64,000 nucleotides of DNA. It comes from a virus. Lineage: Duplodnaviria; Caudoviricetes. Below the pieces are notes generated by a model. That model worked only from the letters and a program-made list of their open reading frames with translations, was not told the DNA's origin and did no database searches. The translations under genes were made by a program, and so were the position numbers. The stretch is taken from IMG/VR virus record IMGVR_UViG_3300025936_000002, positions 1 to 64,000 of that record, one strand, 5' to 3'. This document shows positions 10,633-61,627 of this stretch, piece after piece; the first letter of the stretch is position 1, and each line of letters begins with the position of its first letter.

Positions 10633-10926
10633 GTGCAGATGAGCACCACGTGGGAGCAGACGGCGGTCTGGAACCCACAGGATCCGACGCAGCGTAACCG
10701 CGTGGTCTACGCCAGCCCTGGTGGCTGGGCATCGTTCTATTGGAACCGCATGCCGCCTGCCGGTGAGCTCAAAGGCCTTGGCGTCGGGTTCAGCGGCCTA
10801 CCACAAGCCGCCCAGATCGCTCTCGTCGTCTTGGGCTCGGCCGTCGTCGGCTACGTCGGCTACGCCAAGTTCGGCGACAAGTACATCCGCCCGACCCTCA
10901 AGAAAGTCGGCCTGGTGAAGCGGTAA
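10633..10926 (+). CDS. Tail-anchored membrane protein with LKGLG motif
   Basis: GGAGGAGG RBS, ELKGLG motif, one TM helix and a basic C-terminus. Confidence 0.7.
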   Translation: MQMSTTWEQTAVWNPQDPTQRNRVVYASPGGWASFYWNRMPPAGELKGLGVGFSGLPQAAQIALVVLGSAVVGYVGYAKFGDKYIRPTLKKVGLVKR

Positions 10927-10935
10927 AGGATTGTC

Positions 10936-11148
10936 ATGGCCAAGCATCGAAAGCCCGTGGGCCGCGCCAAACGCTGCAAGCGTGTAGCGACGCATGGCAC
11001 CAAGCGGGCAGCTAACAAGCTCGCAGCCAAGCTCAAGCGGGATGGATTTCGGCCGCTGGTGTCTAAGACCTACGGTGGAGCCCGGGTTGGGTGGGCGGTG
11101 TTCTCATGTCCGCCAGCAACCAAACGCCGCAAGCGCCGGCGGAGGTAG
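10936..11148 (+). CDS. Arg/Lys-rich small protein
   Basis: AAGGA RBS; very basic, two Cys, ends KRRKRRRR. Confidence 0.7.
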   Translation: MAKHRKPVGRAKRCKRVATHGTKRAANKLAAKLKRDGFRPLVSKTYGGARVGWAVFSCPPATKRRKRRRR

Positions 11149-11153
11149 CTTTC

Positions 11154-11513
11154 GTGGGCTTCTTTGATGATCTTCGCTACGACGCGGCTGCTATACAGCT
11201 CGCTGCGTTGTACCCGGCTGGCTCAGCGCCGACGTTCTCGGCAGCCGCCGCCGAGCTCCTAGACCCGTTTGACGCCGACGAGCGGAGCTTGATCGGCGCC
11301 AAGGCGATCGAGCACGGTGCCAACCCGCAAAGCGTGGCCAAGACCGTCGAGGCCCTCAACTACGGCGGCGCCACGCAGGGCTCGGAGGTCGTCGAGGTAT
11401 CAAGCAAGGCCCCCAAGAAAAGCGGTATGCCATGGGCGTGGCTCCTCGGTGGAGCCGCAGCGCTTACGGCGCTCGTTGCCTACAGCAAGCATCGGAAGGC
11501 GAAGCGTAGGTAA
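11154..11513 (+). CDS. Tail-anchored membrane protein
   Basis: GTG start after GGAGG; C-terminal TM (PWAWLLGG...) followed by KHRKAKRR. Confidence 0.65.
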   Translation: MGFFDDLRYDAAAIQLAALYPAGSAPTFSAAAAELLDPFDADERSLIGAKAIEHGANPQSVAKTVEALNYGGATQGSEVVEVSSKAPKKSGMPWAWLLGGAAALTALVAYSKHRKAKRR

Positions 11514-11518
11514 CGGCG

Positions 11519-11749
11519 ATGGCTCGGATCATGACCCTAGACGGGCTCGATCAGGCGAGGATCGCCGAGATTCGTGCGCAGCTGAGCCAGCCCGAGCTGT
11601 CATGGTGGAACCGCCCGATTGGCCTTGGTGGCGTCTTGGATCCGATCACGGCCAACCCCATCTGGGCCCTCGGCGGGGTTCTGCTCGGGGCGTGGCTCGC
11701 GGGCAGCGCCAAGGGCCGCAGCTTGGTTCGTCGGTTTGCCAAGAGGTGA
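11519..11749 (+). CDS. Tail-anchored membrane protein
   Basis: LDGLD and IGLGG motifs, C-terminal TM and basic tail. Confidence 0.65.
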   Translation: MARIMTLDGLDQARIAEIRAQLSQPELSWWNRPIGLGGVLDPITANPIWALGGVLLGAWLAGSAKGRSLVRRFAKR

Positions 11750-11752
11750 ACG

Positions 11753-11944
11753 ATGCTACGTCGAGACGTCACCAGGAATTTCATCCGCGAGCGGCAGTTC
11801 CCGCCGAGCAGATGCGATCGCCGCTCGTTCCGTACGATCAAGCGAGGCAAGGTCAAGATCGTCATCTGTTGCCCAAAAGGTCAGTGGCGCCGTGGGCGGT
11901 GCAAGGTCGGCACGCGCGCTCAATCGATCCTCAAGCCACGATGA
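11753..11944 (+). CDS. Arg/Cys-rich small protein
   Basis: CCPKGQWRRGRCKVGTRAQSIL; basic; translationally coupled. Confidence 0.65.
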   Translation: MLRRDVTRNFIRERQFPPSRCDRRSFRTIKRGKVKIVICCPKGQWRRGRCKVGTRAQSILKPR

Positions 11945-12234
11945 GCCGCAAACGCTTCAAGCCATCGCTAGCTTCGATCTGCGCGGTCAGTGCCGCCGGT
12001 CTCGATCTTCGCCTCACGCCCGGCGGCAAGGAGGCAACGCGCAAGGCGTTCACTGAAGCCGATCTCAAGCGGGTTTTGGAGCGGGGGGATAAGAAGGCCG
12101 CCGGGCACCTAGCTACTTGGCTACGCGGCCGATCAATCGTTCGTGGACCCGAGAAAGGCCCGTATGCGTTGACTGATAAAGGGCTGCTCGTCGTCGCGCG
12201 TGCTTGTCGCGTCTGGGCGAAGCGCGGGCGCTAG
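11941..12234 (+). CDS. Basic hypothetical protein, possible winged helix
   Basis: ATG at 11941 overlaps the upstream stop. YALTDKGLLV resembles a wHTH wing. Confidence 0.55.
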   Translation: MSRKRFKPSLASICAVSAAGLDLRLTPGGKEATRKAFTEADLKRVLERGDKKAAGHLATWLRGRSIVRGPEKGPYALTDKGLLVVARACRVWAKRGR

Positions 12235-12304
12235 AAGCTGGGACGATCACCGTTGAATGCAGGACAACCGGCGCGCCTGCAGCCGTTACCTTCGCTGCAA
12301 TACC

Positions 12305-12721
12305 TTACGTGTCCAAGCACCGTGAGATAGCCATGCACGGCTGGGCGCCTAGCTGCGCGCGGACAAGCTCGGTGATTGCATTTGGGGTCTCGACTGGGAG
12401 CTCGTCAAGCTCTCCTGCCACCCAGCGTTCGACGAGGCGCCGTGCGAGGGTGAGTACCGCGAGCTCGTTAGCGTTCATGGCCCAAGCACTGCGGGGATCG
12501 GTGCCTTGAGGACGTGGATAGGCTACGACTCCGACGTTGACCGCAACTTCGCCATTAGCCCATTTGAACGTTTCGATCTTTACGTCGATTCGTAGACCAG
12601 GATAGAGGTTTTCAGCCCAGTGAACATGCCACGAGCGGTTGGTCTTCTTGATCAGATCATCAGAGGCCTCTACGAGGCGAATTTTCTCAGCTTTGACGTC
12701 GGCGAATTTCATCGCCGTCAA
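12305..12721 (-). CDS. Hypothetical protein
   Basis: 138-aa ORF with protein-like composition; last gene of the leftward block. Confidence 0.5.
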   Translation of the reverse strand: MTAMKFADVKAEKIRLVEASDDLIKKTNRSWHVHWAENLYPGLRIDVKIETFKWANGEVAVNVGVVAYPRPQGTDPRSAWAMNANELAVLTLARRLVERWVAGELDELPVETPNAITELVRAQLGAQPCMAISRCLDT

Positions 12722-12742
12722 GCTTACGCCGATGGGCTGCCA

Positions 12743-13216: not shown

Positions 13217-13263
13217 GGGGCCTCTTTAGCACTGTTGGGGCGATCCTGCCAAATAGAAACCCC

Positions 13264-13992: not shown

Positions 13993-13995
13993 TTT

Positions 13996-14597: not shown

Positions 14598-14606
14598 GCT
14601 GCGATG

Positions 14607-19764: not shown

Positions 19765-20736
19765 CTAGCGGTCTGACATTCGTCGATGGACCAGATCGGC
19801 CAACCAAGGTGGCGTCGAGTTGCGGACCCGGCCGCCGATCTCTCGGGCATCCATGTAGCCGCCGAGGGCGCCAAGCTTGCCCAAGCTGTGATGGGTGATC
19901 GCTGCGATCTCTTGGGGCTTTTGGCCCATCGCCTCGCGCCAGGTCACGAACGTATGGCGAAGCAGGTGGGGGTTGATGTGTCGGAGGCCGGCGAGCTTGG
20001 ATCGCTCTGAGAAGATCTTGGCAACTCCAGACATCGATAGCACTTTGTCAGTCGGCCTAAACGGGGTTGAACTGATGGCAGATCGCCGCAGAGGACAAAA
20101 CACCGGACCCGTTAGCTGCTGATATCGATCAAGAACAAGCAACCATTGGTTTAAGGCTACGAGCGAAATATCTGAGAGGGGTACCCAATCTGGATCTCTA
20201 CCTTTGAGCGGCACAAAGGCAGCTGGATAAGGCCAGGGGCCCAGAGCGTTCAGAGTTAGACCTTCGCTGCGTATCCCCAGCAGCGACATGCAGCGCATGC
20301 CGGTCTCGAGGCCGACGACGATCAGCGCAAAATCACGGATGCCAGCGTAGCTGTGATCGCAAGTATCGAGGAGCGCTCGGGCCGAAGCCTCGTCGAGGGC
20401 CAGCTGCGGTTTTCGATCTTTGGCCTTGGCTGTAGCCACCCGAGCGAAGTCCAGATCGTCGTTGTTCTCGTAGTGGGCAAACCATCGACTGGCGTAGCCA
20501 ACGGACTGCATCAGGCGATTGGCGCTCTGAGGTTTCATCCGCTTGAGGAGCTCGTCGTAGAACACGGCGGCGGCCTTGCGGGTCCAGTTGATCGGGTTGC
20601 TACCGACGAAGGCAATCCACTGATCCAGATCGCGGAGATAACGGCTCTTGGTCGTCTCGGCGATGTTGTGCGCCGAGATCACGATCTCGTGCAGCTTGCT
20701 TTGGGGGACGGGGGGGCTATTGCCAGGCGATTTCAT
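19765..20736 (-). CDS. Tyrosine recombinase/integrase
   Basis: RDFALIVVGLETGMR (Arg I), PHLLRHTF (HxxR), ITHHS (His) and GGY (Tyr); N-terminal SAM-like domain TKSRYLRDLDQW. Confidence 0.88.
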   Translation of the reverse strand: MKSPGNSPPVPQSKLHEIVISAHNIAETTKSRYLRDLDQWIAFVGSNPINWTRKAAAVFYDELLKRMKPQSANRLMQSVGYASRWFAHYENNDDLDFARVATAKAKDRKPQLALDEASARALLDTCDHSYAGIRDFALIVVGLETGMRCMSLLGIRSEGLTLNALGPWPYPAAFVPLKGRDPDWVPLSDISLVALNQWLLVLDRYQQLTGPVFCPLRRSAISSTPFRPTDKVLSMSGVAKIFSERSKLAGLRHINPHLLRHTFVTWREAMGQKPQEIAAITHHSLGKLGALGGYMDAREIGGRVRNSTPPWLADLVHRRMSDR

Positions 20737-21337
20737 CGAGCTTCTTCCGCGCGCGTTCGCCAAGCGGCAAAAATTCGATTGCCTCGGTCAGTAGTATCCA
20801 TGGTAGTTCCTTTGAGATCCGACCGGAATCAGGTCCGATGGTAGCTACCTCGTGAAGCGTATTAGCGCCATTCCATGACCAAATGCGCTTAGCGGCGGTC
20901 AAAATGGCCTCTTTGCCGTCTCGACGAAACAGGCGGCCATAGTGAATCCCAGCAGAGTAGGTACGGACTACAACCCATTCGCCGATGTCTTGTTCGATGC
21001 TTGAAATAGAAACCACGCTAGTCTCCTTATTTGTTAGATCCCCGTCCCCGGACCCGGACCCGTACCCGGACCCGGACCCGTCCCCGTCCCCGTCCCCGTA
21101 CCCGGACCCGGACCCGGACCCGTACCCGGACCCGGACCCGTCCCCGTCCCCGTCCCCGGACCCGTCCCCGTACAGAAAACCTGCAAGCGATGGCGCCCGC
21201 CAAAAGGCGGCCCCTTGATCTCCGGCCCCTTCGTACCAATCGGCGGTTGTTGCTCGTGCGTCCAGCGAGTCGACCGACTCAGCAAGCAATGCGGCTAAAC
21301 GCACAGTGGATTCATCCCCGCCATGATAGCAACCCAC
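20717..21337 (-). CDS. G/S/D/Y low-complexity linker + DUF6948-like domain (start uncertain)
   Basis: GDGSGSGYG repeats, then VVVRTYSAGIHYGRL...AKRIWSWNGANTLHEVA. Confidence 0.65.
   Translation of the reverse strand: MGCYHGGDESTVRLAALLAESVDSLDARATTADWYEGAGDQGAAFWRAPSLAGFLYGDGSGDGDGDGSGSGYGSGSGSGYGDGDGDGSGSGYGSGSGDGDLTNKETSVVSISSIEQDIGEWVVVRTYSAGIHYGRLFRRDGKEAILTAAKRIWSWNGANTLHEVATIGPDSGRISKELPWILLTEAIEFLPLGERARKKLDEIAWQ
21042..21172. repeat. Hexamer tandem repeat (cccgga/cccgtc/cccgta) with 60-bp higher-order duplication
   Basis: Lines 21061 and 21121 start with the same 38 nt; encodes alternating Gly-X. Confidence 0.9.
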
Positions 21338-35182: not shown

Positions 35183-35686
35183 CTAGCGCCCCTTTTTGGT
35201 CTTCGGCGTGGCCCTCAGCCGATTTGAGATCCAAATCAAGCCGAGCGCGGTCAAGGCACCGAGCGCCAACTGTTGCCAGAAGGGAAGCAGCCTGAAGCGC
35301 ATAAATAGGCTTGTCTGCGCGCCGTAGGGGCTGTGCACAACTGAAATTGGGGGCACCCCGCCACCACCTCCGGGCACTGGGGCTGCAACGTGAGGGAGGC
35401 CGACCTCCTCAGCCACGCCAACTAGAAACTCGGCGAGACCCTTAGCAGACGTCACCGAGCTGTCTTGCTGGCTCCATTGAGCCATGACTCCTGTAGCCGT
35501 ACTGGAGGTCTCAGCACTAGGGCAAATGGATTGATAGCATTTACCTGTGGCCACCCACGCCAAGGAGGCGTAGGCCCCTTGCTTGGTATTGGCGCCCCAG
35601 AGGCCGTCTACGGCAACCCGCGGAAAGCCTCCGACCGCTGCGAAGCGGTTGATCACGTTTTGTAGGGCGGTTACGGCGGGATCCAT
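35183..35686 (-). CDS. Peptidoglycan-binding-domain protein with C-terminal TM anchor (start uncertain)
   Basis: VTALQNVIN...VDGLWGANTKQG is a PG_binding_1-like signature; TM and basic tail follow. Confidence 0.65.
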   Translation of the reverse strand: MDPAVTALQNVINRFAAVGGFPRVAVDGLWGANTKQGAYASLAWVATGKCYQSICPSAETSSTATGVMAQWSQQDSSVTSAKGLAEFLVGVAEEVGLPHVAAPVPGGGGGVPPISVVHSPYGAQTSLFMRFRLLPFWQQLALGALTALGLIWISNRLRATPKTKKGR

Positions 35687-35730
35687 CGCACCTAAGACCC
35701 TACCAAAATCCTCTGGTAGACTCGAGAAAA

Positions 35731-36606
35731 ATGGCGCCCGATTGTTATCCGTGGTGGCACGCAAAGTTTGAGCCGTTCCGGGCTCAACCGATCTACGTTA
35801 GCTCAGGCTGCGCGATCAATGCGATCGGCAACGTCGCGTGCGAGCCGGAGAGGATGCGCGCCGACGCCGAGGCGTTCCTCCGCGCCCATGGATTTCTCAG
35901 CTCGCTATCGCTCGAGGCTTACACCCTCGCGCGGTACATGCAAGGTGAGGTCGGTGGGGGGCATCCGCCGGGAACGCTGGAGGAAGCCGTTGCCGTCGGT
36001 GAAGCGGCAGTAAATCGAGCCAAGCTCGAAGGCAAACGCGATGCAAACGCGATTCTACTGTATCGCCAGAATCCCTCTCACCCTAACTACGGTTGGTATG
36101 GGCCGATCCACGGCGGGACGGGAACCACGACGGCGCCGTATGGTCGATGGGCCACGACCGGGGTTGACCCGACGGTCTTATCTTGCCTCTTGGCCGACTT
36201 GATCGTATCCGGCCAAAGCGGCAACTTTTCCAAGGGCGCCGACGATCAAGCCGGCATCCAGTACACGGCCAATTTTCCGTCGCTGCCAGCCTATGTAACG
36301 TATCTTGCCAACAACCACGGGTTTTGGGTTGGCCCCTTGGTTGGCGTGGACCACTGGCGAACCTTCTTGGTTCGCAACCAACGAGGCGAGACAGCGAGCA
36401 CTCCATGGGGCGCCGAGCGGGTCAAGTTCACCCTCGACTACCTGAACATGGACATGGCTGCCTCCGGCGGCCGGAAGATGCCCCAGCCTTGGTCAAAGGA
36501 TCTTCCGATGTGCCCTCGAAGCGGCGCGTTGTGGATCGCCGGGCTACTTGGCCTCACGATCGGTGCCTTGGCCTTTAGCCACGGCTGGATCAAGACGCCG
36601 ATTTAG
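35731..36606 (+). CDS. SleB/Hydrolase_2-like cell wall hydrolase with C-terminal TM anchor
   Basis: YTLARYMQGE...AVAVGEAAVNR, with the putative catalytic Glu in GE; C-terminal TM. Confidence 0.6.
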   Translation: MAPDCYPWWHAKFEPFRAQPIYVSSGCAINAIGNVACEPERMRADAEAFLRAHGFLSSLSLEAYTLARYMQGEVGGGHPPGTLEEAVAVGEAAVNRAKLEGKRDANAILLYRQNPSHPNYGWYGPIHGGTGTTTAPYGRWATTGVDPTVLSCLLADLIVSGQSGNFSKGADDQAGIQYTANFPSLPAYVTYLANNHGFWVGPLVGVDHWRTFLVRNQRGETASTPWGAERVKFTLDYLNMDMAASGGRKMPQPWSKDLPMCPRSGALWIAGLLGLTIGALAFSHGWIKTPI

Positions 36607-40164: not shown

Positions 40165-41049
40165 TCAGAATTGCGGCAGATCGAGGATAGGGCGGCCTTG
40201 GGCGCGGCGTTGGATGGCCTTCAGGACCACGAGCGCTCCGACGCCAGCAACCACCGTGAAACCGGTCCACTGCAGCCATCCCCACGGCTTGTTTTGGCCA
40301 GGCAGCGCAAACTTGGGCTTGTCGACGATCTTGTTGCAGGTGGCAACGCACGCATCGGTTTGGCCACCTTGACCAGTGCAGGTTTTGAGGCATTCGAGAC
40401 GAGCGGCGGTGTAATTGGCGAACGCGTTGGCTTGCTCCGCGACTTGCTTGGAGTTGGATTCTTGGACCGCGCTCGTCTCGAGGTAGTGCATGATTGCGAC
40501 GATCGCTACGGATACAGCAATAGCGATACCGGCAATTGCGATCAGGACTATCGGCAGAACACCCAAGCCGTTCGTGGCGGTTTGGCTTCGCGCCGCTTGA
40601 ACCTGCAGGAGCGTCGAAAAGCTCGGCGCCCGTTCAGGATTCAACGCAAATTGATCTTGGGTGACGATCTGGATCTCGTTGGTCGACAGCCGCTGCGCCT
40701 TCTTGGTTGGCGTCATAGCCGCCCTGAGCGCCCCCGAGAGTGAGTTTCCACCCCCCTCGCAATTCATTTGCCAGGCAGTTTCGCCGGAGACGCCCTTCCA
40801 AGCGAACAGGGTCGGCGCTGTAGGTAGCTCGGGCACACCCTGCTCGCCGTTGGCCCGCAGCGTCGCCAGCATACCCGCCTGCGTGTTGTAAGTGGCCAAG
40901 GCCCACAGGTTGTAGGCCTTTACCTCGTCGCAGGTAGCCTCGCCGACTTGGAGCAGGCCAGCGATGTTGCCTGCCGCCCTCCGCATCGCCTGGTAGAGGC
41001 GCTCGATGTTGTCGGCGATCGTCTTGAGCCTGGTGGCGTCGTCGGCCAT
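40165..41049 (-). CDS. Two-TM membrane protein with Cys-bridged loop
   Basis: TNGLG precedes TM1, loop has CLKTC...CVATC, then TM2 and a basic tail. Confidence 0.75.
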   Translation of the reverse strand: MADDATRLKTIADNIERLYQAMRRAAGNIAGLLQVGEATCDEVKAYNLWALATYNTQAGMLATLRANGEQGVPELPTAPTLFAWKGVSGETAWQMNCEGGGNSLSGALRAAMTPTKKAQRLSTNEIQIVTQDQFALNPERAPSFSTLLQVQAARSQTATNGLGVLPIVLIAIAGIAIAVSVAIVAIMHYLETSAVQESNSKQVAEQANAFANYTAARLECLKTCTGQGGQTDACVATCNKIVDKPKFALPGQNKPWGWLQWTGFTVVAGVGALVVLKAIQRRAQGRPILDLPQF

Positions 41050-41285: not shown

Positions 41286-41594
41286 CTACAGCTTTGATCT
41301 GACAAGTGCTGCCACGCCAATCACGCCTATCCCCAAGAGGCTCCAAGTCCACCACGGCCAGCCACCAAAACCAAAACCACCTAGGCCGGATTCCACCCGT
41401 CGAAGGCGTGTATAGTAGTCGGGCACCTCGTAGAGATGATCGAGAGCGATCTCATACGCGATTTGCGGATCGCGCGTGTGTTCCATCTCGACGCGGATTC
41501 CCTCTTGGATCTGCCATGGATCGACATCGATCGGCCCCATGCCAGAGGATTTACCTCCAGGGATGCGTTCAGGTCGCGGCGGCCAAACCAACAT
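41286..41594 (-). CDS. DUF5661-like domain with C-terminal TM anchor
   Basis: GIRVEMEHT.DP.IAYEIALDHL.E.PDYYTRL, then SGLGG and a TM helix. Confidence 0.72.
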   Translation of the reverse strand: MLVWPPRPERIPGGKSSGMGPIDVDPWQIQEGIRVEMEHTRDPQIAYEIALDHLYEVPDYYTRLRRVESGLGGFGFGGWPWWTWSLLGIGVIGVAALVRSKL

Positions 41595-43320: not shown

Positions 43321-44028
43321 CTAGGTCACGTTGCGCTTGATCAGGCCGTAGAGATAGCTCTTGATGTCGGCAAACGTCAAGTTATCGCCGCCATCCGAGG
43401 CGGGCTGGACGATGACCGGCGGCGCCTCGGGGTTGAACTCGAGCCGATACGCGATGTTCTCGCGCATCCAGATCGGCAGAACGAGCGCGTTGCGATCGCG
43501 GGGCGACGGAACGCCGTTCTGCGCGAGCTCGAAGTTGGCGTTGGTGCTGAACACGTTGAAGCCATGCCCCTGCGGGTAGTCCTGGATCACACCGGACGTG
43601 TACACCTTGTCGTTGTACTTGAACTCCAGGTAGGTCACGCGATCGACGTTGAACAGCGTCCGCAGCGTGGCCGGATCCGACAGTGCACCGTTGGTGTCCG
43701 GGAACTGCGGCTGCGTCGCGTTCTCGGCCGGGCGCTCGACGCGGACCATCTTGATCCCGATGCCGTAGATGAACATCTCCCACGACATCGGCAGACCGGT
43801 ATCACCGGCGCGAGCGAGGTTGCTATCCACGCGGGTGCTAGTACGTGTGCCGCCGTTGATCGGCTGCGCGCGACCGTTCACGAACGCCTGCAGACCGAAG
43901 GTCTGCCCGTTGGTGAACTGCACGGTGCTATACAGCTTGTCATCGATCCAGTCTTCGATCTGGATCGTCTGCCCGCTGGGCAGGGTGAACGTGGTGGTTC
44001 CTGGTGCTACTCCGACAGTGCCGGCCAT
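43321..44028 (-). CDS. Candidate large single-jelly-roll major capsid protein
   Basis: 235 aa, beta-rich, extreme GC3 bias, AAGGAG RBS and own terminator. Motifs T..DSN...G.LP..WE..IYGI, NGVP and YLYG...R.V are recalled from jelly-roll capsid proteins. Confidence 0.62.
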   Translation of the reverse strand: MAGTVGVAPGTTTFTLPSGQTIQIEDWIDDKLYSTVQFTNGQTFGLQAFVNGRAQPINGGTRTSTRVDSNLARAGDTGLPMSWEMFIYGIGIKMVRVERPAENATQPQFPDTNGALSDPATLRTLFNVDRVTYLEFKYNDKVYTSGVIQDYPQGHGFNVFSTNANFELAQNGVPSPRDRNALVLPIWMRENIAYRLEFNPEAPPVIVQPASDGGDNLTFADIKSYLYGLIKRNVT

Positions 44029-44096: not shown

Positions 44097-44717
44097 CTAG
44101 CGACCGGCCCCGAGGAGCGTGGCGCCGTAGGCGGCGGCGAGGTTGTGCGTCGGGGGACCGCCGGCGCCGAGGAGCTGGATCGATGCTGCCGACGGAGTGC
44201 CGAGCAGCGAGATGGGCGGAGCGCCGCCGCCGGGGCCCGCGAGGTGCGAACCCGCAACGCCCGGGATTGCACCCTGAGCATGCGAGACCGGCGAGAGCTC
44301 GGGGAGCCCGAGACCGTTGAGCGCCCGCGTGGCCGGATAGCCCAGCCCGTTGAGCGCCCGCGCCTGCGGGAACCCGAGACCCTTGACCTCAGGCGGCACG
44401 ACCTTGGCCGGCACCGTCGCTTCGCCCATCATCCACTTGCCGATCAGAGGCAGCCCCGCGACGAGGAGCGCCGTCACCGTGCTGGCAACGGCTGCGCCGC
44501 GGGTCGACTTCATCGAAGCCAGCACCGCAGATGTCGCGAGGCCGAGACCAAGGCCGATCGCTTCGGCATGCTGAGAGCCGCCGATGTGGCGTGCCGCAAG
44601 CGTACCGACGCCCGCTACGCCACCACCGATCAGAGCACCATACGTCGGGTTGAGACGCCCGCCCTTGAACATCCCGAGCCCCAGCAGATCGACGCCCGAG
44701 GAAATCAGCTTTGCCAT
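44097..44717 (-). CDS. Membrane-associated virion protein with four xxGLG motifs
   Basis: LLGLG, VKGLG, LNGLG and LNGLG; Gly/Ala-rich hydrophobic helices; directly upstream of the capsid gene. Confidence 0.75.
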   Translation of the reverse strand: MAKLISSGVDLLGLGMFKGGRLNPTYGALIGGGVAGVGTLAARHIGGSQHAEAIGLGLGLATSAVLASMKSTRGAAVASTVTALLVAGLPLIGKWMMGEATVPAKVVPPEVKGLGFPQARALNGLGYPATRALNGLGLPELSPVSHAQGAIPGVAGSHLAGPGGGAPPISLLGTPSAASIQLLGAGGPPTHNLAAAYGATLLGAGR

Positions 44718-44938: not shown

Positions 44939-45442
44939 TCAGCGGTACCATTGGCGTAGAGGACGATCGATGAGGGCTTGTGCCTGCGCGGCCGGGAATG
45001 CCACGCCGTAGCGATCCTTTTGGATCGCCATGAGTCCCGCCATCTGCGCGGCCAGCTGCGGCGCGATTTGCTGCGCCATACCCGGAGCCGGGCCGGGCAT
45101 ACCCAACCCATTCATGGGTTGAGGTGGCATCCGCGGCACACCACTTGCCGTAGGTGGCATCGGATGTGGAGCAGGCATCCCAGCAGACATCAGCTTCTTG
45201 GCTCGACGCTCGGCGATCCAAGCTCGGAGCCGAGCGAGGAACCGCTCCACGGGGGCCGGCATCGCGCCGAGACCCTGCAGCATCATGCCGCGCTCGGCAC
45301 CCTGCGTGAACGCCATCGCCACCGCCTCGACGTCCGCCGGCGGCTGATAGCCCACCATCGGAGCCAGGACGCTGGTGCGATACACCCGATCGGGACGCAT
45401 GAAATGCATCCCGTCGCCGTGCCTGTTGGTAAAATCAGCCAT
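44939..45442 (-). CDS. Pro/Met-rich virion-associated protein
   Basis: LQGLG and MNGLG motifs; first gene of the capsid operon. Confidence 0.65.
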   Translation of the reverse strand: MADFTNRHGDGMHFMRPDRVYRTSVLAPMVGYQPPADVEAVAMAFTQGAERGMMLQGLGAMPAPVERFLARLRAWIAERRAKKLMSAGMPAPHPMPPTASGVPRMPPQPMNGLGMPGPAPGMAQQIAPQLAAQMAGLMAIQKDRYGVAFPAAQAQALIDRPLRQWYR

Positions 45443-48041: not shown

Positions 48042-48395
48042 ATGGCCCAGCTTGCCGCCCGCAGCTACTACGACGAGACCGGAACCTACGAGGGCGGATC
48101 TGGCCGAACGGTCGATACAAGCCCAATGCCGCCGACACCACTACCGCGGCCCGTCACGAGCCCCAACCCAGTGCCGTCAGACGGCCTACCGCCACCCATC
48201 AATCCAAGCGACGCACCGATCGTGACGCCATCTATCCCGCCTGCACCCTACCCGACGAACACAGGCATCGTCCCGCCGCATCTACAGATGACTTGGATCC
48301 AAGCCCATCCGATGGTGATCCCGGTTGGGATCGGCTTGGCTGGGCTCCTCTTGGGCCTCACCATCGGCATCGCCGTTGGCAGCCGCAAGCGCTAG
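48042..48395 (+). CDS. Pro-rich tail-anchored membrane protein
   Basis: P/T-rich linker, C-terminal TM and SRKR. Confidence 0.7.
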   Translation: MAQLAARSYYDETGTYEGGSGRTVDTSPMPPTPLPRPVTSPNPVPSDGLPPPINPSDAPIVTPSIPPAPYPTNTGIVPPHLQMTWIQAHPMVIPVGIGLAGLLLGLTIGIAVGSRKR

Positions 48396-48784
48396 CGAAG
48401 TAGCGCGCCGGCGCCGCCGAGGACGGCCAATCCGAGCAGCGCGACACCACCGATGACCAGCCACTTGCGGTTGGTCCAGGCCCACGAGTCGAAGCCGAAG
48501 CCGAGCCCGTGAGGCGGATCTATCCACCGCGCCTTGGTGATGCCTAGACCAGTGAGGCTCGTGCAGGGTAGACCGGGGCAACACGGCGCTTGGCCGTTGG
48601 TGCACGCCAACGGATCACCTTGGATGCGTTGTGGAACGTAGCTGAGCGGCTGGATCGTCCGCTGCCCGTTGGTCCAGTCGCCTGGAATCTTGCAATGCGG
48701 ATTGAGCTTGATGTTGATTGCAGGATCCTCAGAAAATTGCCAATCAGGGATCAACCCGAGTCCATGTGGTTGCGCAAACATCAT
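48392..48784 (-). CDS. Tail-anchored membrane protein with three GLG motifs
   Basis: PHGLG, LTGLG and PHGLG; Cys cluster; C-terminal TM. Confidence 0.7.
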   Translation of the reverse strand: MMFAQPHGLGLIPDWQFSEDPAINIKLNPHCKIPGDWTNGQRTIQPLSYVPQRIQGDPLACTNGQAPCCPGLPCTSLTGLGITKARWIDPPHGLGFGFDSWAWTNRKWLVIGGVALLGLAVLGGAGALLR

Positions 48785-48791: not shown

Positions 48792-49103
48792 TTATCTCCT
48801 CGTTCGACGCAGCGGTCTAATCTGCCAGCCAGACAAACGACGATTAGCCGCCGCGAAGTCGGCAATGTCGGAGCGCGCAAACGAAATTGCAGCATGCGCC
48901 GCATCGCGCATAGCGCGCGGATCGTCAACAGCAAGACGACGGCCATGGACGCTACGAGATCCTGCCGCCGGCGGCTTCACCGAAACCGTTTCACAGCGTT
49001 CGCCTTTGACGGTTGGGCACATCTTGACTCGATATTGATCTGTTCGATCGTTGAAGCTAACTTCGAGCTTCAAGCTACCACTCTTGAATCGCTGCTTTGC
49101 CAT
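48792..49103 (-). CDS. Basic small protein
   Basis: MAKQRFK start overlaps the upstream stop; ends RRTRR. Confidence 0.6.
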   Translation of the reverse strand: MAKQRFKSGSLKLEVSFNDRTDQYRVKMCPTVKGERCETVSVKPPAAGSRSVHGRRLAVDDPRAMRDAAHAAISFARSDIADFAAANRRLSGWQIRPLRRTRR

Positions 49104-49543
49104 TACGCAACCCTCCGCTTGCCGAAGCCTTGGGCGACGCCGATGACCGGCGTGATCACCGGGAAGGTCAAACCCATTAAGGCCCACCAGAGGGCCCAAC
49201 CGATGGACTGATTGCGCCTGTAGCCGTGGTAGGCGCTCGCCGCCATGCTCGCAGTCGACAGGATCCCCCAAACCAGCCCCCAATTCACCTTGGAGCTCGC
49301 ATCGAGCCACGTGAGCGCCCCCGCGACAGCCTTGCTATCCACCCCACGAGCGATCAGCGCTCGGGCTGCATCGGTACGGGGCCCGCCGGAGGCGTAGAGC
49401 TTTAGGAACTCAGCCACCTGCGTAGACGACGGATTCGGCGACTTGAGGAGGAATCCATCGATCTCGTTGTCGAGGCCGAGCAGCTGGATCGGCGGACCTA
49501 GCAGTTGGACGGGGGCTGGCATGGTTGCTTCCGAGCCTACCAC
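49103..49543 (-). CDS. Two-TM membrane protein
   Basis: LLGLD motif; TM-AYHGYRRNQSIGWALWW-TM; basic tail. Confidence 0.7.
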   Translation of the reverse strand: MVGSEATMPAPVQLLGPPIQLLGLDNEIDGFLLKSPNPSSTQVAEFLKLYASGGPRTDAARALIARGVDSKAVAGALTWLDASSKVNWGLVWGILSTASMAASAYHGYRRNQSIGWALWWALMGLTFPVITPVIGVAQGFGKRRVA

Positions 49544-50003: not shown

Positions 50004-50759
50004 CTACGCGTCGAAGTCGATGAACTTGGCGTAAGTCGGCTCGCGGCCGAAGTGATCGTTGCCGGGGAGAGTCGTGTCCAGGGCGACGAATTTGTCTCCG
50101 CCACCCTTCGGTAGAAGGGCCCCAGGGAAGATATGCTCCCAGTCCTCGGCGCCCTTGGTCTGGACTACACGAAGCCGCGGTGTAATGCCGTTTTCCGCGA
50201 GCATCGTTGCCGCCAAAATGTTGTGATCGTCGCAATCGCCGCCACCGAACTCCAACGTTCGATGGGCAGCTTGGAAGAGGTCAACCCCCTCTACTTTCCC
50301 ATCGTGCCAACGGATTGGTGCAATATCGCCTGTATAGCGAACGCGAGCCTTGATGAAGTCGTAGATTGCTTTGGCTTCACACATCCCGTCTCGCTCTGGG
50401 CAATGGGCGGTTGCCTGCAACGAGATCTTTCGCATCCGTCCATCTTTGATGGATTCACGGACGCGCTCTTGGATCGAAGCTACGCGGACCTCGATCGGCA
50501 TGTTGTCCATCTCACGAAGTGTTGTAGTATACCCACCGGCTGTACGCTGATCGACGATCGGCGCCTCTTGAGCCTTACCTAGGAACCGCCGACCTTTTCG
50601 CCCCCATCCAAGGCCGGAGATCGGGGTTGGAGCCCCCTGACGGCTGTAGGCAATCCCCCCGAGGATGAGGAGACCCAGCCCCGTAAGACCTGAGATCCAA
50701 GCGAGCGTGGTTGGCTTCTTCACGGTGCCTTGGATGCTAGCACGGCTTTGGCAAACCAT
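50004..50759 (-). CDS. Transglutaminase-like cysteine protease with N-terminal TM (probable GTG start 50723)
   Basis: Triad GDCDD (Cys), WEHIF (His), ALDTT (Asp); VRYTGD upstream; TM then ISGLG. Confidence 0.8.
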   Translation of the reverse strand: MVCQSRASIQGTVKKPTTLAWISGLTGLGLLILGGIAYSRQGAPTPISGLGWGRKGRRFLGKAQEAPIVDQRTAGGYTTTLREMDNMPIEVRVASIQERVRESIKDGRMRKISLQATAHCPERDGMCEAKAIYDFIKARVRYTGDIAPIRWHDGKVEGVDLFQAAHRTLEFGGGDCDDHNILAATMLAENGITPRLRVVQTKGAEDWEHIFPGALLPKGGGDKFVALDTTLPGNDHFGREPTYAKFIDFDA

Positions 50760-51681: not shown

Positions 51682-53178
51682 ATGCACGTGTTTCGAGCGC
51701 GAGGTCTGCACGGTCAGGGGCTATGCGGCCTCGGCGACTATCCAGCTAGCAACGGATTCTGTTGGGTCCCCGCTAGCGGGGACATCCCGGGCCACTGGGA
51801 GCGGCCATGGGCTGGTAGCAACCCAACGACGCCGTGCAAGTATCCGCCACCTGATAGCGGTGGAGCGATCGTACGTGATCATACGAGCGGCGGGGGCGGA
51901 GGTGGCGTAACGGTGACCGAGAGCCCCAGCATCTTGGACGTCGCCAAAGGCACCATTGTCAACTTGGCGATGGTGAACCGCCTCTTCAACGCGACGCTCA
52001 AGCAATACACAGAGCGTGAGGCGCTAGCGGTCAAGGCGCTCATGGTTACGGGGGAGGGGTTGCCCGCATGCCCACCCGAGAGCCAACAAACCATCGACGG
52101 CAAACCAACTTGTTACGGGTTCACGCCGCGTACAGCAGCTGCAGCACTGCCTGGAGGGTTTGAAGTCCTCGGCGTCCCGTTCAACGTGTCTGAAATCGGC
52201 ATTACCAAGAAGCCGCAATTCGAGCGCGTATTCACGCCAAACAATGAACAGCGGATCATGATCGAATCGATGATCATTCGTCGATCTGATGATCTACTAC
52301 TTGCTGCCCTCGGAGATGCGTTGGATCGTGCAGTCGCTGCGAGCAGTGGGGGCGTCATGACCCCCAATGATCGAGATCGAGCGATTGCCAAGCTGTCGGC
52401 GGCGCAGGCATTCGCGTTGCTGCCCGATTGGCAAACGGTGATCCCAGGAATGGCACTGCGTTCGGATCCGCCGCGAAGCTATGAGCTAGATGTCGAAGGT
52501 GGATTCAGTAAATGGCACGATCGGGGCGGATTTCTGATCTCACGCGCTATCGCTACCGGTCAATACTTCATCAACGTCCCTCAACCGGATCAAGCGCGCC
52601 AGGCGGGAACCATCTCGCCACGGGTGTGCACGTCAATTCTGTGCGCCTGCAGTCCAACCGGTACACCATCGTGCATTGCCGATTGGATCCCATCATCAGA
52701 TGGGGGGCGCGTTCGACTTTGGGTCCATGTTGCAATCGATCCTAACGGATCGATGAAGATGACTCTGAAGCATGATGATCCTAGTTGGCTAGAGAAGGCT
52801 GGTGGAAAAATCCATGCCTTCGTGGATGTCTTGAACAAAGCAATATGCACAGCGGCCCCAGCCATCAAAACGCAAACAACTTCGGTCATCGCCGACAAGT
52901 ACGTCGACGCCAACGGCAAGGCGTGTACTAAAGGCGCGACGGGCTGCAACCTTGTTCAGGCCTCAGCCGCGGCAACGGGGGGCGTTGGCCTCCTGAATTT
53001 TGCGGTAGGAACGTACTGCAGCGTCATTGCGAGCAACCAACAAAACCCTAAGGAGCCGGTGCCCCCAACCCCGACTCCGGCCCCCATCACCACAACTCCA
53101 CCGTGGTTGCATTATCTGCCCTGGGTGATTGGCGGCCTGGCACTCGGTGCCGGAGCGGTAGTTATCACGCGTCGCTAG
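51682..53178 (+). CDS. Large Cys-containing tail-anchored virion protein
   Basis: N-terminal GLHGQGLCGLG, many Cys pairs, P/T linker, C-terminal TM and RR. Confidence 0.75.
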   Translation: MHVFRARGLHGQGLCGLGDYPASNGFCWVPASGDIPGHWERPWAGSNPTTPCKYPPPDSGGAIVRDHTSGGGGGGVTVTESPSILDVAKGTIVNLAMVNRLFNATLKQYTEREALAVKALMVTGEGLPACPPESQQTIDGKPTCYGFTPRTAAAALPGGFEVLGVPFNVSEIGITKKPQFERVFTPNNEQRIMIESMIIRRSDDLLLAALGDALDRAVAASSGGVMTPNDRDRAIAKLSAAQAFALLPDWQTVIPGMALRSDPPRSYELDVEGGFSKWHDRGGFLISRAIATGQYFINVPQPDQARQAGTISPRVCTSILCACSPTGTPSCIADWIPSSDGGRVRLWVHVAIDPNGSMKMTLKHDDPSWLEKAGGKIHAFVDVLNKAICTAAPAIKTQTTSVIADKYVDANGKACTKGATGCNLVQASAAATGGVGLLNFAVGTYCSVIASNQQNPKEPVPPTPTPAPITTTPPWLHYLPWVIGGLALGAGAVVITRR

Positions 53179-53405: not shown

Positions 53406-53891
53406 GTGGTAGCGTCAGGACCAAGTCCTATGATCCATCGCGGCGGAACCCTCCTAGGAACCAACGAGATTGAGAACCTCCAGCGAGCCTTGAGCAATCT
53501 CGCCGTGGCCACACAGCGCCCGGCGATCAACGCCAAGGTTACCGGCGTCATGGATGATCAGACCATGACGGCCTTGAGCGCTGGGCTTGGCCTGCTTACC
53601 GAGCAGTTACCGAAGTGGCTCTACCTTGGCCTGCAGGGTGTTCTGATCCTAGGTGTTACGAGCTCGCAGGCGAAAAAGTACGCCGGCGAGTACGCAGCGC
53701 AGCTCACGCTCGCGGCGAACACCGCCGCGGTCAAGTTCAAAACGACACCTCCAGTAATCGCGCCTGCATCTCAACCTCAAATCGTCGGATTCTTTGCGCC
53801 GGGTTGGTACAAGACGCCGATCGGATTGGGCTTGATTGCTCTGGCGTTATTCGTCGGATACAAGATCTTCATCGCCCCCAAGGCAGCCTAA
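53406..53891 (+). CDS. Membrane protein with PG-binding-like N-terminus
   Basis: IENLQRAL...VTGVMDDQTMTAL resembles PG_binding_1; C-terminal TM. Confidence 0.55.
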   Translation: MVASGPSPMIHRGGTLLGTNEIENLQRALSNLAVATQRPAINAKVTGVMDDQTMTALSAGLGLLTEQLPKWLYLGLQGVLILGVTSSQAKKYAGEYAAQLTLAANTAAVKFKTTPPVIAPASQPQIVGFFAPGWYKTPIGLGLIALALFVGYKIFIAPKAA

Positions 53892-53900: not shown

Positions 53901-54194
53901 ATGAAGCGCATCACGTTGGGCGCCCTCGGCGCGTATCCTCAAACGGACGGAAAATGTTGGATGCCGCCGGGGTCAATCTCCGCACCAAGTGGCGGTTGGG
54001 TTGCAATCAATGATCCACTTACACTATGTACCTACAAGGGTCCTGCTGCAGGCGTAGTATCAACGCCGGGAGCTACGACGCCGACCCTACCGAGCGTGAT
54101 GCCATCTTGGTGGGATCGCATCCCGACTTGGCTCAAGCTCGTGGGCGGCGTGGCGGTGGCCTATCTTGGCTACACGTATTTCATCAAGAAGTAG
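53901..54194 (+). CDS. Tail-anchored membrane protein
   Basis: AAGGA RBS, TLGALG motif, C-terminal TM and KK. Confidence 0.7.
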   Translation: MKRITLGALGAYPQTDGKCWMPPGSISAPSGGWVAINDPLTLCTYKGPAAGVVSTPGATTPTLPSVMPSWWDRIPTWLKLVGGVAVAYLGYTYFIKK

Positions 54195-55486: not shown

Positions 55487-55729
55487 ATGACCGTCGGTGT
55501 TGCGCCTGGAACCACGACCATCCACCTTGGCTTGGGCGAACCCAACAAGCAGTTGGTGCTGCACAACCCATGGGTGTCTGGTGACGTCGCCTTGGGGGCG
55601 ATTCAGACCAAGGCCAAGATCCGATGGGACATCATCGGGGTCATCGGCGGAGGATCCCTGATCATAGCCCTTGCAGCCGGCCTTATCGCCAGCGCATTCG
55701 AGGCGGGCTCTGACAGACGGACGACGTAA
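55487..55729 (+). CDS. Tail-anchored protein sharing its N-terminal decapeptide with the large capsid protein
   Basis: TVGVAPGTTT is identical; HLGLG motif; C-terminal TM. Confidence 0.7.
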   Translation: MTVGVAPGTTTIHLGLGEPNKQLVLHNPWVSGDVALGAIQTKAKIRWDIIGVIGGGSLIIALAAGLIASAFEAGSDRRTT

Positions 55730-55739
55730 ACTTGGAGCC

Positions 55740-57817: not shown

Positions 57818-57843
57818 AGGGTCGCTTCATCGGAAGCGACCCT
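57818..57843. terminator. Bidirectional intrinsic terminator
   Basis: Perfect 10-bp stem agggtcgctt/aagcgaccct with an A-rich left flank and T-rich right flank. Confidence 0.75.
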
Positions 57844-57931
57844 GTTTGTTTGATTAATTTGCGCTTCTAAGGGGAGCGCTACCCATTCATATCAGTATCG
57901 TGGTCTCGTGTGATGACGTTGTCAACACGCC

Positions 57932-58400: not shown

Positions 58401-58460
58401 CGGAAGCGATCGAGGAGGTAATCCCTGCGTCGATCGCAGGCGCTCCGACGGCGCCCTCTA

Positions 58461-58823: not shown

Positions 58824-58871
58824 TTCGAGCCCGAGTTTAACGCCTAGGCCTGTCGTGGTACGCTCTTAGAC

Positions 58872-59414
58872 ATGGCGCTCGGCGTTGTTTTGACTCCCTA
58901 CGGACACATCCCAGGATCGTTCCCGACAGCCGTAGACTTCGATCACAGAAGGGCCGAGACGTTCAGGTCTCCCTTCGATCCTAGGTGGTACGAGCGAGGC
59001 GAAGCCGGTATGTACTACGATACGCAGCTCGGAGCGACACCCACTGACTTCGAGCTCTCGCGGAAGATCGGCTTCATGCCGATCAAGACGGGATGGGTCG
59101 TCACGAAGCAGGGCTACCTACCCGGTCGGTGGTATCCCCCCGATGGGGGTTGGCCGGGCCAGCCGGCCCTCACTCGCTCCAAGGTGGTCCCCTTCGACCG
59201 CTACTCGCTGCGGGGGCTCGGCGAGCCCGAGCCTCAACCGATCCCACTACCGCCGCCTGCAACCGCGGATGACGTCTTGGCCGTGATGGCAGCCCATAAC
59301 GATCGCGTCTTCGCCTTGGCTTTGGTCTCCACCACAGCCGTGACCATCTCTGCCCTGATCACGCTTCTACGGACGCTCAAGCTCCTACGAGAGGGTCGCT
59401 CACGTGGCGAATAA
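58872..59414 (+). CDS. Tail-anchored membrane protein with LRGLG motif
   Basis: SLRGLG, Pro linker and C-terminal TM. Confidence 0.7.
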   Translation: MALGVVLTPYGHIPGSFPTAVDFDHRRAETFRSPFDPRWYERGEAGMYYDTQLGATPTDFELSRKIGFMPIKTGWVVTKQGYLPGRWYPPDGGWPGQPALTRSKVVPFDRYSLRGLGEPEPQPIPLPPPATADDVLAVMAAHNDRVFALALVSTTAVTISALITLLRTLKLLREGRSRGE

Positions 59415-59653
59415 CTCAATTCCAGGACGCGAAATCAGTCGGCAAATCAAGGCCGAATACACGCTAATCGAGCACGCACCTGCCGGCCATCAAACCGAGG
59501 GCTGCAAATTCCTCGAGACCAGTTGCGTCGACAGTTGCCCCAGGATGTACCGCATCGACAACGCACATCCTAGCTTCGCAGAAGTCCAAGCTGGATTGGA
59601 CTGCGGCGATCGATCGGTCATCTTTTGTTACCATCACGTTGACGCTCAAGCTC

Positions 59654-60397
59654 CTACGTGAGGGGTCGCGCTACAGAGTACCTGCATATCGGTCGAGACA
59701 TATGGCCCGTAACAACGCGGGTATCGCAGGCGATCTTCCGTCCCTGCGCTTTCATCTGGCGGCAGAATTCAACATCTTCACTGCGGCCTTGCTGATTCGG
59801 TCCGGCCTCGACAAAACGAAACGAAGCCTCCCCGACGGCATGAAGGTTGATTGCCATAATCGCCGTTGCTGCGGCATCGATCGGGACAAGACCTCTAGGC
59901 TCGGGCTCTAGATCGATCTGTTCGATCGGCAGTAGCCAATTATCTGCTACACGCAGACGGTAAACCATTGGTAATGTCGCGTTGAGACGCCCAACGACAG
60001 GAGCTGCGACGACGTCGAAGCCTGCAGCATCGGCATCGTCGATCATGCTGAGAAGCGCCCAACCACCAGATTGACCACTCAGGTCGCGTTGGACGAAGAC
60101 GTCTGCGTCGAGCATCAGGAGCCAATCGGCATCAGCAGTCATGGCTGTAGCCAAGGCCATGTTCCTGGCGCGGTCGACAGGGTTGATATCCCACGTGTTG
60201 ACTTGAATCAACCTGAAGCGCTCCTTGCGATCTTGTAGAGAGCCGCCGAGCGTGAGCCACATCAAGGCTTGGTTGGAGGTGACTTGACCGCCATAGGCGA
60301 TCAAGGCGATAGCGAGATCGATACGCTGCGATTCCATTATCGTGTCTCCATAAGCATTTTGACCCATCCCAACGAAGGTCTGTAGTGCGCCGTGCAT
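59654..60397 (-). CDS. Glycosyltransferase family 2-like protein
   Basis: ARNMA, WLLMLDAD (DxD), SEDVEFC and DTRVVTGHM. Confidence 0.8.
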   Translation of the reverse strand: MHGALQTFVGMGQNAYGDTIMESQRIDLAIALIAYGGQVTSNQALMWLTLGGSLQDRKERFRLIQVNTWDINPVDRARNMALATAMTADADWLLMLDADVFVQRDLSGQSGGWALLSMIDDADAAGFDVVAAPVVGRLNATLPMVYRLRVADNWLLPIEQIDLEPEPRGLVPIDAAATAIMAINLHAVGEASFRFVEAGPNQQGRSEDVEFCRQMKAQGRKIACDTRVVTGHMSRPICRYSVARPLT

Positions 60398-60723
60398 GAA
60401 GTGATCGCCCGCCGAAGATCGATAGCCAGTGTTTCAGCTTTTTCGCGACCTCGACGAAGATTTTCTCTGCGACGAGAATCTACTAGGGCCTCTGTAATAG
60501 CATAGTTAGCTCTACCTTGTAGTTCCCATGTAGGTTCGGTTACGTCCATATCGACGGCATCCAACGTGCGTAGAGTGCCTTGAAAGCACTTTGTTTGCGC
60601 CGTAATCGCAAGCCGCCAAATGCGATCTCTATCGTCGCAATCAGTAGCTCGAATAGCCGCCGCAGTAGCATAGATCCCGATGAGACCCGAACACGATCGA
60701 TAGATTGATGTACTCGCGATCTG

Positions 60724-61285
60724 TCACAGCGCGGTTCCAACGAATGCATCTTTGACGATGCCAAACAATTCTGCAGAGGACAACTGAAACCGATCGAAGC
60801 CATAATGAAAGTCTACTCCGCGTCGACAAACGCTGTTTGCATGAATCGCCGATTCCTGAATCTTACGTATCACTGTGATGACTATACCGCTACAAGGTGT
60901 GTGATGATATTCGAGCGCCGGCATCGTGTACTCGTCGCCGGCTGAGTAGCGCTCCACGCCTCGCATGTAGACGTTGACGTCTGCGACCGGATAGCTCTCT
61001 CGGCCACCCTTGTCGCTGCGTGGTCCGTTGTGGCTGATCAGCACGTGGGATCCGGTGCCTGGCTTCACGACCTCTAGATCGCATCGCTGGTTGACCTGGA
61101 TGCCCTTTAGAACGCGCGAGGTGAACGAGAACCTGTGATTTGTGGATCGCCGAGTGCTCGTAGCAGTTTCGACGCGGCAAGTCAGGGTGCCACACGTGCA
61201 AGCGCTGATTGCCGTCGAGCTTGACTTGGATTAACCCAAGCCCATGGAGCGAGATCGTTTCAGCAGTAGGGGTGAAATCTTTCAT
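60724..61285 (-). pseudogene. Cupin-fold protein split by a 1-nt frameshift (or a sequencing error)
   Basis: Removing one T at 61139-61141 joins RLHVWHP...AIH to NHRFSFTSRVLKG...YH, a cupin His motif. Confidence 0.65.
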
Positions 61286-61321
61286 TGCTGCACGATACCT
61301 CCCCTTGGTATAGCTGTGGCT

Positions 61322-61627
61322 ATGGCCACGGCTGCGCTCCCCACTTATAAAACGGCTGCCCACGTCCTCGAACGAGACAAGGGATCCGGTGTGCGGCTCC
61401 TGGGATGGACTGTGGCCCGAACGCTACTGATCGCTCCGCCGTTCATGGTCGTAGGCGTTCCTGCGAAGCAGGCCTTCATTGGGGCCGGAATCGCGAGTGG
61501 CTTGATCAGCTTGTTCACGCTGCTTCGCATCTTCGATGCGCGGCAGACTGGCTTAGCTGGACTCAGGCGACCGCAGGCGGATCGCCACGGTCGCCGTCGT
61601 CTGCCCCCGCGTCCCGTCCGAAGGTAA
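61322..61627 (+). CDS. Membrane protein with GLAGL motif and basic tail
   Basis: Two hydrophobic segments, then TGLAGLRR and an Arg-rich end. Confidence 0.6.
   Translation: MATAALPTYKTAAHVLERDKGSGVRLLGWTVARTLLIAPPFMVVGVPAKQAFIGAGIASGLISLFTLLRIFDARQTGLAGLRRPQADRHGRRRLPPRPVRR

Follow-up and report, generated by a model that had tools for sequence, protein, structure and literature searches.

Membrane-anchored late proteins that share a short G-L-G-centred tag in an uncultivated, probably tailless virus, and a predicted transglutaminase-fold enzyme that may read it

How membrane-containing phages select the proteins of their virion membrane, and whether they mature by proteolysis, is little understood, and we know of no maturation protease described for viruses of the PRD1, PM2, P23-77 or SSIP-1 type. 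In bacteria, the cellular cysteine protease Prp trims N-terminal leaders with a shared motif from ribosomal protein L27 as well as from the capsid and scaffold proteins of phage 80alpha. The present analysis concerns a short peptide tag, L-x-G-L-G, and its possible reader, the protein p251, in a window of 64 kb, i.e., the first 64 kb of the IMG/VR record IMGVR_UViG_3300025936_000002, which comprises 85,269 bp, has direct terminal repeats and is estimated to be complete. The source is probably an uncultivated, tailless, membrane-containing virus of bacteria. This case differs from the Prp system, with its cellular protease and its other motif, in that the candidate protease considered here is viral and membrane-bound.

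The adenovirus protease is a particle-packaged thiol enzyme of the Cys-His-Asp/Glu type that cleaves the consensus sites (M/I/L)XGX-G and (M/I/L)XGG-X (PMC3386624). The likeness to our case lies in a short, Gly-containing consensus on several unrelated virion precursors, and LxGL-G fits the first of the two types. However, the virus has a bacterial host and no gene of the adenain family, its candidate enzyme is transglutaminase-like and not of clan CE, the second type of site is not enriched, the position that is free in adenain sites is a fixed Leu, and cleavage is unproven here. LapG and CPR-C4, in turn, are experimentally proven proteases of site-specific or general action (PMC4359373, PMC9108980), and p251 is predicted to have the fold and the Cys-His-Asp arrangement of LapG/BTLCP and CPR-C4, but p251 is a viral protein that belongs to the core of its lineage and is anchored by an N-terminal helix, and it has no sequence-level match to solved structures. 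The Salisaeta phage SSIP-1 is tailless, contains a membrane and has two types of capsid proteins (PMC6356626). Its gp34, annotated as structural, is a homolog of p251, its late proteins are tail-anchored, and GLG or GMG is found on some of them (gp37, ORF36, ORF52 and gp53). The differences are that its genome is a 44-kb circle, in contrast to 85 kb with terminal repeats, that the membrane helix of gp34 is C-terminal, and that the tags of SSIP-1 are weaker. SSIP-1 can be grown on Salisaeta sp. SP9-1. The window represents an independent, statistically controlled case with an L-x-G-L-G flavour and with tandem repeats of the tag in one protein, p206.

Genes were called with a simple codon-bias caller of our own, which yielded 110 approximate gene calls with approximate start codons, and membrane helices were predicted with a simple hydropathy scan. 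The stretch at 35-64 kb, denoted the module in the following, is dense in small proteins with a single, mostly C-terminal hydrophobic helix. An earlier note on this DNA had listed LxGLG and related xxGLG sites in what it took to be virion proteins and had proposed that they form a code for maturation cleavage. All of its main sites were recovered in plausible open reading frames (ORFs). The variants that it had added fared unevenly: LLGLD (in the ORF at 49103), LGALG (ORF at 53901) and LDGLD (ORF at 11519) are present, but LDGPG is absent from the gene set, and LAGLR was seen solely in unrelated genes, e.g., that of the integrase.

The motif is far more frequent than expected from composition. 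Shuffling of each protein of the whole genome predicted 15.2 occurrences of GLG and 1.3 of L.GLG, in contrast to 33 (z 4.6) and 10 (z 7.8) observed. When blocks of 15 residues were shuffled, which preserves local Gly/Leu richness, the genes at 35-64 kb contained 20 GLG vs. 7.0 expected (z 4.9) and 8 L.GLG vs. 0.9 (z 7.7), so that the count exceeds what Gly and Leu content predicts, contrary to one of the outcomes that the earlier note had named as fatal to its claim. In the rest of the genome (14,751 residues), the same shuffles gave no significant excess, with 13 GLG vs. 9.8 and 2 L.GLG vs. 0.8. The enrichment in the module is also seen in a direct comparison, namely, 10 matches to [LIM].GLG in its 6588 residues vs. 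2 in the 14,751 residues elsewhere (Fisher p = 2.7e-4). The order of the residues matters: L.GLG occurs 10 times and its five other orders 0-4 times, and GLG occurs 33 times vs. 14 for GGL and 17 for LGG.

It should be noted that GLG occurs about 100 times over all six reading frames of the window, which has a G+C content of about 59%, and that the sites are not fully independent, given that three of them lie in the tandem repeat of p206, some in paralogous N-termini (the proteins at 51682 and 53901), and one inside a membrane helix. An excess by chance, by Gly/Leu composition or by a DNA repeat is nevertheless refuted by the controls: the whole-protein shuffles, the local shuffles and the anagram counts rule out a compositional artefact, and the signal is confined to the module and recurs in 7-8 other genomes. 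The sites are encoded by varied codons (GGC CTT GGC, GGG CTG GGC, GGT CTC GGG and others), and therefore the signal resides at the level of the protein, and a repeat in the DNA is ruled out as its cause.

The core of the tag is narrower than the (L/I/M)xGLG that had been assumed. Only GLG is invariant (in some families Leu-Gly alone), and Leu at position -2 is present in 47% of the sites. Among 81 sites outside helices, Leu at -2 represents a 5.6-fold excess and Pro at +2 a 3-fold one, position -1 favours Asn or Ser, and position +1 favours Asp or a hydrophobic residue; in most cases, Asp/Glu or Leu/Ile/Met-Pro comes directly after the core G-L-G. This pattern bears on the possibility of a true adenain-type system, in which a clan CE protease would cut both (M/I/L)xGx-G and (M/I/L)xGG-x, and of which LxGL-G formally matches the first consensus (PMC3386624). 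However, the second class, [LIM].GG., occurs 24 times vs. 28.1 expected, and among the matches to [LIM].G.G, Leu alone is over-represented at the variable position (4.3-4.9-fold). Moreover, a six-frame search of the whole 85-kb genome yielded no match to PF00770 (Peptidase_C5) or PF02902 (C48/Ulp1) at E <= 10, and neither family is among the 25 listed of the 38 families matched in a Pfam scan of 109 genes. An adenain-type system is thus very nearly refuted. The comparison with adenoviruses is supported in part, and the link to their system does not go beyond analogy.

The same signal is found in relatives. A search of IMG/VR via p235, the candidate capsid protein, gave no close relatives, and relatives were instead obtained from protein searches; seven loci of about 20 kb each (L004-L010) were fetched around homologs of p206. 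Around the candidate capsid gene, these loci maintain the order of the genes. Each locus contains 3-7 L.GLG vs. 0.3-0.4 expected, and pooled they contain 36 vs. 3.3 (z 17.8), with 2-5 for the anagrams. Orthologs that are otherwise 23-50% identical keep GLG at N-termini and in linkers while individual sites are gained and lost, as expected of a linear motif. In many orthologs, the sequence on either side of the retained GLG has diverged. Many small proteins of the relatives begin with M-x(3-10)-(R)GLG-(D/E or L/I-P), for example MYFRGLRGLGD, MMFYGLRGLGG, MFQLRGLGED, MMVQLLGLGD and MLLAREGLGLIP.

With respect to placement, GLG outside hydrophobic helices is associated with proteins that bear a helix (odds ratio 7.1, p = 2e-4), and the sites lie at leaders, in linkers and just before or after membrane helices, in agreement with the earlier view that the motif separates a leader from a domain or a transmembrane segment. 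The short linear tag L-x-G-L-G is genuine: it is conserved, portable, order-specific and situated on membrane-anchored, mostly tail-anchored, late proteins (Table 1). That these are virion proteins, as had been claimed, is suggested by the position and the architecture of the genes: the module holds a jelly-roll capsid candidate together with membrane-anchored proteins, and it is from this neighbourhood that we infer virion membership. The tag probably has one shared reader.

The candidate for this role is p251, by its structural model a membrane-anchored, transglutaminase-fold Cys-His-Asp enzyme. It matches Pfam Transglut_core with 24.2-25.8 bits (cut-off 23), is the sole such gene in the genome, and carries an additional LTGLG within its membrane helix. 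The residues Cys175, His208 and Asp227 (GDCDD / H / ALDTT) are invariant in eight orthologs. The nearest solved neighbours of the model are 3kd4 (Z 14.1) and 3isr (Z 10.6), two "putative proteases" from structural genomics, followed by PeiP (Z 9.9), LapG (4fgo, 8.9), PeiW (8.8) and CPR-C4 (7pjo, 8.6); Foldseek matches range from E 1.5e-5 to 1e-3, including LapG (4u65_E, E 1e-4). A comparison of the p251 profile with PDB sequences gave nothing meaningful. Homologs of p251 number more than 360 and are uniform in length, and several lie on contigs equal in length to contigs that carry p206 homologs; p251 is present in 7/7 of the fetched relatives and, in addition, in L013 and L017. In 59 of 78 full-length homologs (76%), the linker that joins the helix to the catalytic domain contains G[LFMI]G, typically as (V/L)-(S/A/N)-G-L-G-(W/F/R)-G-R. 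The similarity to SSIP-1 gp34, which is labelled a structural protein in the GenBank record, is clear in a profile comparison, in which the catalytic residues align (hhalign probability 97.4, E 1e-11), and SSIP-1 was the sole phage record matched in a tblastn search with p251 (E 5e-3). A C39 peptidase was not matched in the genome, and at E <= 0.1, none of 20 proteins of the module matched any other protease family. p251 has the sole protease-like fold found. It may be a protease, as opposed to a peptidase of the cell wall or a cross-linker.

We tentatively propose that the tag is a processing signal. p251 would recognize GLG on the membrane-anchored late proteins and would cut at or beside it during particle assembly, which would trim leaders and free domains from their anchors; p251 might also release itself via the tag in its own linker. 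Cleavage by p251 would account for the placement of the tags at leaders and in linkers, for their turnover, for the tag in the linker of p251 itself and for the fact that the enzyme strictly accompanies the tagged module. With slightly greater reserve, we consider it possible that a widespread lineage of large, uncultivated, membrane-containing viruses of bacteria matures by means of its own membrane-anchored, transglutaminase-fold protease, which would cut G-L-G on a dozen unrelated membrane proteins and on itself. Such a system would have converged on that of adenoviruses from a different fold, and tailless viruses of prokaryotes would have no earlier example of it.

Several observations weigh against processing. 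Of the 81 sites outside helices, 22 are located within the first 35 residues, which hold 20% of all residues, a modest surplus that is blurred by the use of longest-ORF starts. Some of the called leaders comprise 1-3 residues (MLGVIP, MTLGIIP), and their removal seems pointless, unless the start codons are miscalled. Conservation is as high in the residues that follow the tag (IPDWQF) as in the tag, and in the more distant loci L015 and L017, the excess of L.GLG and the preference for Leu at -2 fade. Furthermore, the transglutaminase fold is also found, with similar scores (Z 8-10), in cell-wall isopeptidases (PeiP and PeiW) and in cross-linkers (factor XIII, TG2/3), and an ordinary alternative is that p251 is a virion enzyme for entry through the cell wall.

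The capsid candidate opens another possibility. p235 has the strongest codon bias of all genes at 35-64 kb, about 88 family representatives in a library of 1.8 billion proteins, and an identity of 61-82% across the seven relatives. Its AlphaFold model (predicted local distance difference test score 86.5) is a single jelly roll, and a VIA search, which is independent of Foldseek, returned capsid proteins as its top three matches, i.e., those of SPV1 (Z 8.2), HHIV-2 (8.0) and HCIV-1 (7.8), which are borderline Z values in the range common for beta-sandwiches. The model suggests that p235 is likely the capsid protein. It has no similarity to gp45, gp46 or gp47 of SSIP-1 in profile comparisons (hhalign probability <= 2.7), and tblastn also gave no match to them. 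Sphaerolipovirus-type capsids (HCIV-1, HHIV-2, SH1 and P23-77) and that of SPV1, the best matches of the p235 model, all come from viruses with an internal membrane, but the genome sizes, replication genes and hosts of these viruses are unlike those of the virus studied here, and a Z of about 8 is borderline. To our knowledge, neither a shared tag nor a maturation protease is known for them.

The N-terminus of the tagged protein p80, MTVGVAPGTTT, closely copies the N-terminal arm of p235 (MAGTVGVAPGTTT). Orthologs of p80 are present in L005 and L013, and that of L005 keeps the arm and has ALGPI at the position of the tag. The copy of the capsid arm directly ahead of HLGLG suggests that N-terminal peptides of membrane proteins may contact the shell in this lineage, and it speaks for an explanation in which the tag is not cut and instead serves as a docking or sorting peptide, which would bind the capsid lattice or another assembly factor, gather the tagged membrane proteins into the patch of host membrane from which the inner membrane of the virion forms and tie them to the shell. 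This is nearly as likely as cleavage. The 2-3 evenly spaced LNGLG-(I/L)P units that p206 offers, beside the capsid gene, would be suited to multivalent contact with a symmetric capsomer, and docking is also in line with flanks such as GLG-x-IPDWQF that are as conserved as the tag and with leaders too short to need removal. However, docking leaves unexplained why 76% of the p251 homologs carry the tag, though p251 may need sorting as well, and the turnover of linker sites fits both docking and cleavage.

An unlikely third explanation dispenses with a common partner. GLG would be a flexible turn or hinge at the joints between domains and membrane helices and would belong, in part, to a few paralogous N-terminal domains, and p251 would be an unrelated cell-wall endopeptidase of the virion that acts in entry or exit. 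The sites of p294, p97a and p184 do abut membrane helices, one site lies inside a helix, p498 and p97b share a paralogous N-terminus, and the pseudomurein isopeptidases PeiP and PeiW are among the fold matches of p251. Nevertheless, GGL, LGG, GAG or GVG would serve equally as a hinge and none of them is enriched, the flanking positions are biased as well, with an excess of Leu at -2, of Asn/Ser at -1 and of Pro at +2, and the tag is found at the extreme N-termini of unrelated small proteins, distant from any helix. A hinge fits the anagram and context statistics poorly.

Table 1. Location of p251, of the capsid candidate p235 and of the tagged proteins in the window
Feature	Position	Strand	Description
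p251	50004..50759	-	N-terminal membrane helix, disordered basic linker with ISGLG (50607-50621), predicted catalytic domain
p235	43321..44028	-	candidate single-jelly-roll major capsid protein; no GLG tag; marks the module as structural
p206	44097..44717	-	Gly-rich membrane protein directly upstream of the candidate capsid gene; N-terminal LLGLG (44673-44687)
p206, tandem 11-residue units		-	VKGLG 44373-44387; LNGLG 44340-44354; LNGLG 44307-44321
p167	44939..45442	-	LQGLG 45266-45280 and MNGLG 45101-45115, in Pro/Met-rich linkers
p130/p184	48392..48784 (ORF to 48946)	-	small, tail-anchored; likely start MMFAQPHGLG-LIPDWQF, tag 48755-48769
p184, further sites		-	LTGLG 48542-48556; PHGLG 48500-48514, 14 residues ahead of the C-terminal membrane helix
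p498	51682..53178	+	tail-anchored; N-terminal leader MHVFRARGLHGQGLCGLG-DYP; LCGLG 51721-51735
p97b	53901..54194	+	N-terminus MKRITLGALG-AYPQTDGKCW (53916-53930); variant tag
p146	49103..49543	-	N-terminal ...VQLLGPPIQLLGLD (49469-49483); LLGLD variant
p180	58872..59414	+	LRGLG 59208-59222, in a Pro-rich linker ahead of the C-terminal membrane helix
p294	40165..41049	-	TNGLG-VLP (40561-40575) directly ahead of the first membrane helix
p102	41286..41594	-	DUF5661 domain (E 1.6e-12), ESGLG (41379-41393), then a Trp-rich hydrophobic C-terminus
p80	55487..55729	+	80 residues; MTVGVAPGTTT start, then HLGLG (55523-55537), then membrane helix
p97a	10633..10926	+	LKGLG 10768-10782, 9 residues before the C-terminal membrane helix

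Comparison of the individual proteins with their orthologs reveals how the tag is retained. p206 has more than 200 homologs on contigs of 20-138 kb, many of them of 50-138 kb. In an alignment of 37 sequences, LNGLG is near-invariant while the other positions of the unit drift, and the N-terminal site is mostly LLGLN in the relatives. The repeat region of p206 (44307-44390) consists of 2-3 tandem units of the form GLG-[I/L]P-x-x-R-A-L-N that show concerted evolution within each genome, with LNGLG fixed in more than 35 relatives, and the C-terminus of the protein (...YGATLLGGGR) is near-invariant. In p184, an alignment of 20 homologs shows that the N-terminal M-M-F-A-x-P-x-G-L-G-x-I-P-D-W is kept, with (G)LG-x-IPDW near-invariant, and GLGIT and DLG recur. 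The N-terminal GLG of p498 is mostly kept in orthologs of 23-42% identity, e.g., as MIMLRGLGLCGLG, MSMLFARGLG or SLLSGLG, and the N-terminus of p97b is paralogous to it (GLG-D/A-YP-x3-G-x-CW). Orthologs of p146 have MLPALLGSGLGD, MFPAFPMLGLGD or MMVQLLGLGD at the tag.

Linker sites behave similarly. The first site of p167 is LNGLG or LSGLG in L004 and L008 and is changed in other orthologs. Orthologs of p180 have RGLG-D/E at the equivalent place, and those of L007 (RRALNGLG) and L010 (KKALRGLG-MIP) have a second site, within an insertion that is missing from the window protein. The site of p294 corresponds to DGLGF, AGLGIAP or RQLGIAP in its orthologs. An ortholog of p102 was not found in the fetched relative loci, and p97a has the sole clear site outside the main module.

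Two membrane-anchored proteins of the window, encoded at 35183-35764 (-) and 53406-53891 (+), contain segments that resemble peptidoglycan-binding repeats by eye (LQ..L..........DG..G..T); Pfam gave no match for these segments at E <= 0.1. If the segments are real, some tagged proteins would act on the cell wall.

The remaining gene content was surveyed with Pfam and PHROGs scans of 109 genes. The replication and recombination set comprises helicases, a primase, a topoisomerase, methyltransferases, an integrase, one Sak4-like and one ParB-like protein, and a family A DNA polymerase fused to a domain like uracil-DNA glycosylase. No terminase, portal, tail protein or head-maturation protease is among the families listed from these scans, nor is any structural PHROG among them, and no tRNA genes were found in the window. 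The polymerase (4269-7526, +) has 1085 residues with the uracil-DNA-glycosylase-superfamily domain at its N-terminus, and its best phage matches are just 22-27% identical. The integrase is of the tyrosine type (19765-20763) and is followed by a stretch of 531 bp without genes according to our caller, in which an ORF at 21034-21285 (-) contains a low-complexity run of (Gly-Thr/Gly-Pro)n.

Additional observations on the relatives concern their surroundings. L015 (CP070815.1, 3,705,225-3,725,920), which encodes a 64%-identical homolog of p235 and further module genes, is located in the closed chromosome of a Gemmatimonadota metagenome-assembled genome, where the module adjoins host-like enolase-superfamily genes; it may be an integrated relative and a clue to the host. 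Other matches lie on contigs of metagenome-assembled genomes that were binned to Actinomycetes, Polyangiales, Alphaproteobacteria and Woesearchaeota, and these might be binning artefacts. In L005, L006, L008 and L010, variable slots around the module are occupied by genes for AcrVA2-like and Acb2/Tad1-hairpin-like (anti-defence) proteins, ThyX, dCTP deaminase and MazG, which are typical of viruses of bacteria.

The finding offers a short peptide code, a set of roughly a dozen proteins that are candidates for substrates or cargo, and one conserved candidate enzyme, in a lineage with hundreds of metagenomic homologs. If the tag is cleaved, the system would parallel adenovirus maturation by convergence; if it serves for docking, the tag would act as a signal that sorts proteins to viral membranes. 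Either outcome would aid the recognition of virion proteins in an otherwise unannotatable group of viruses.

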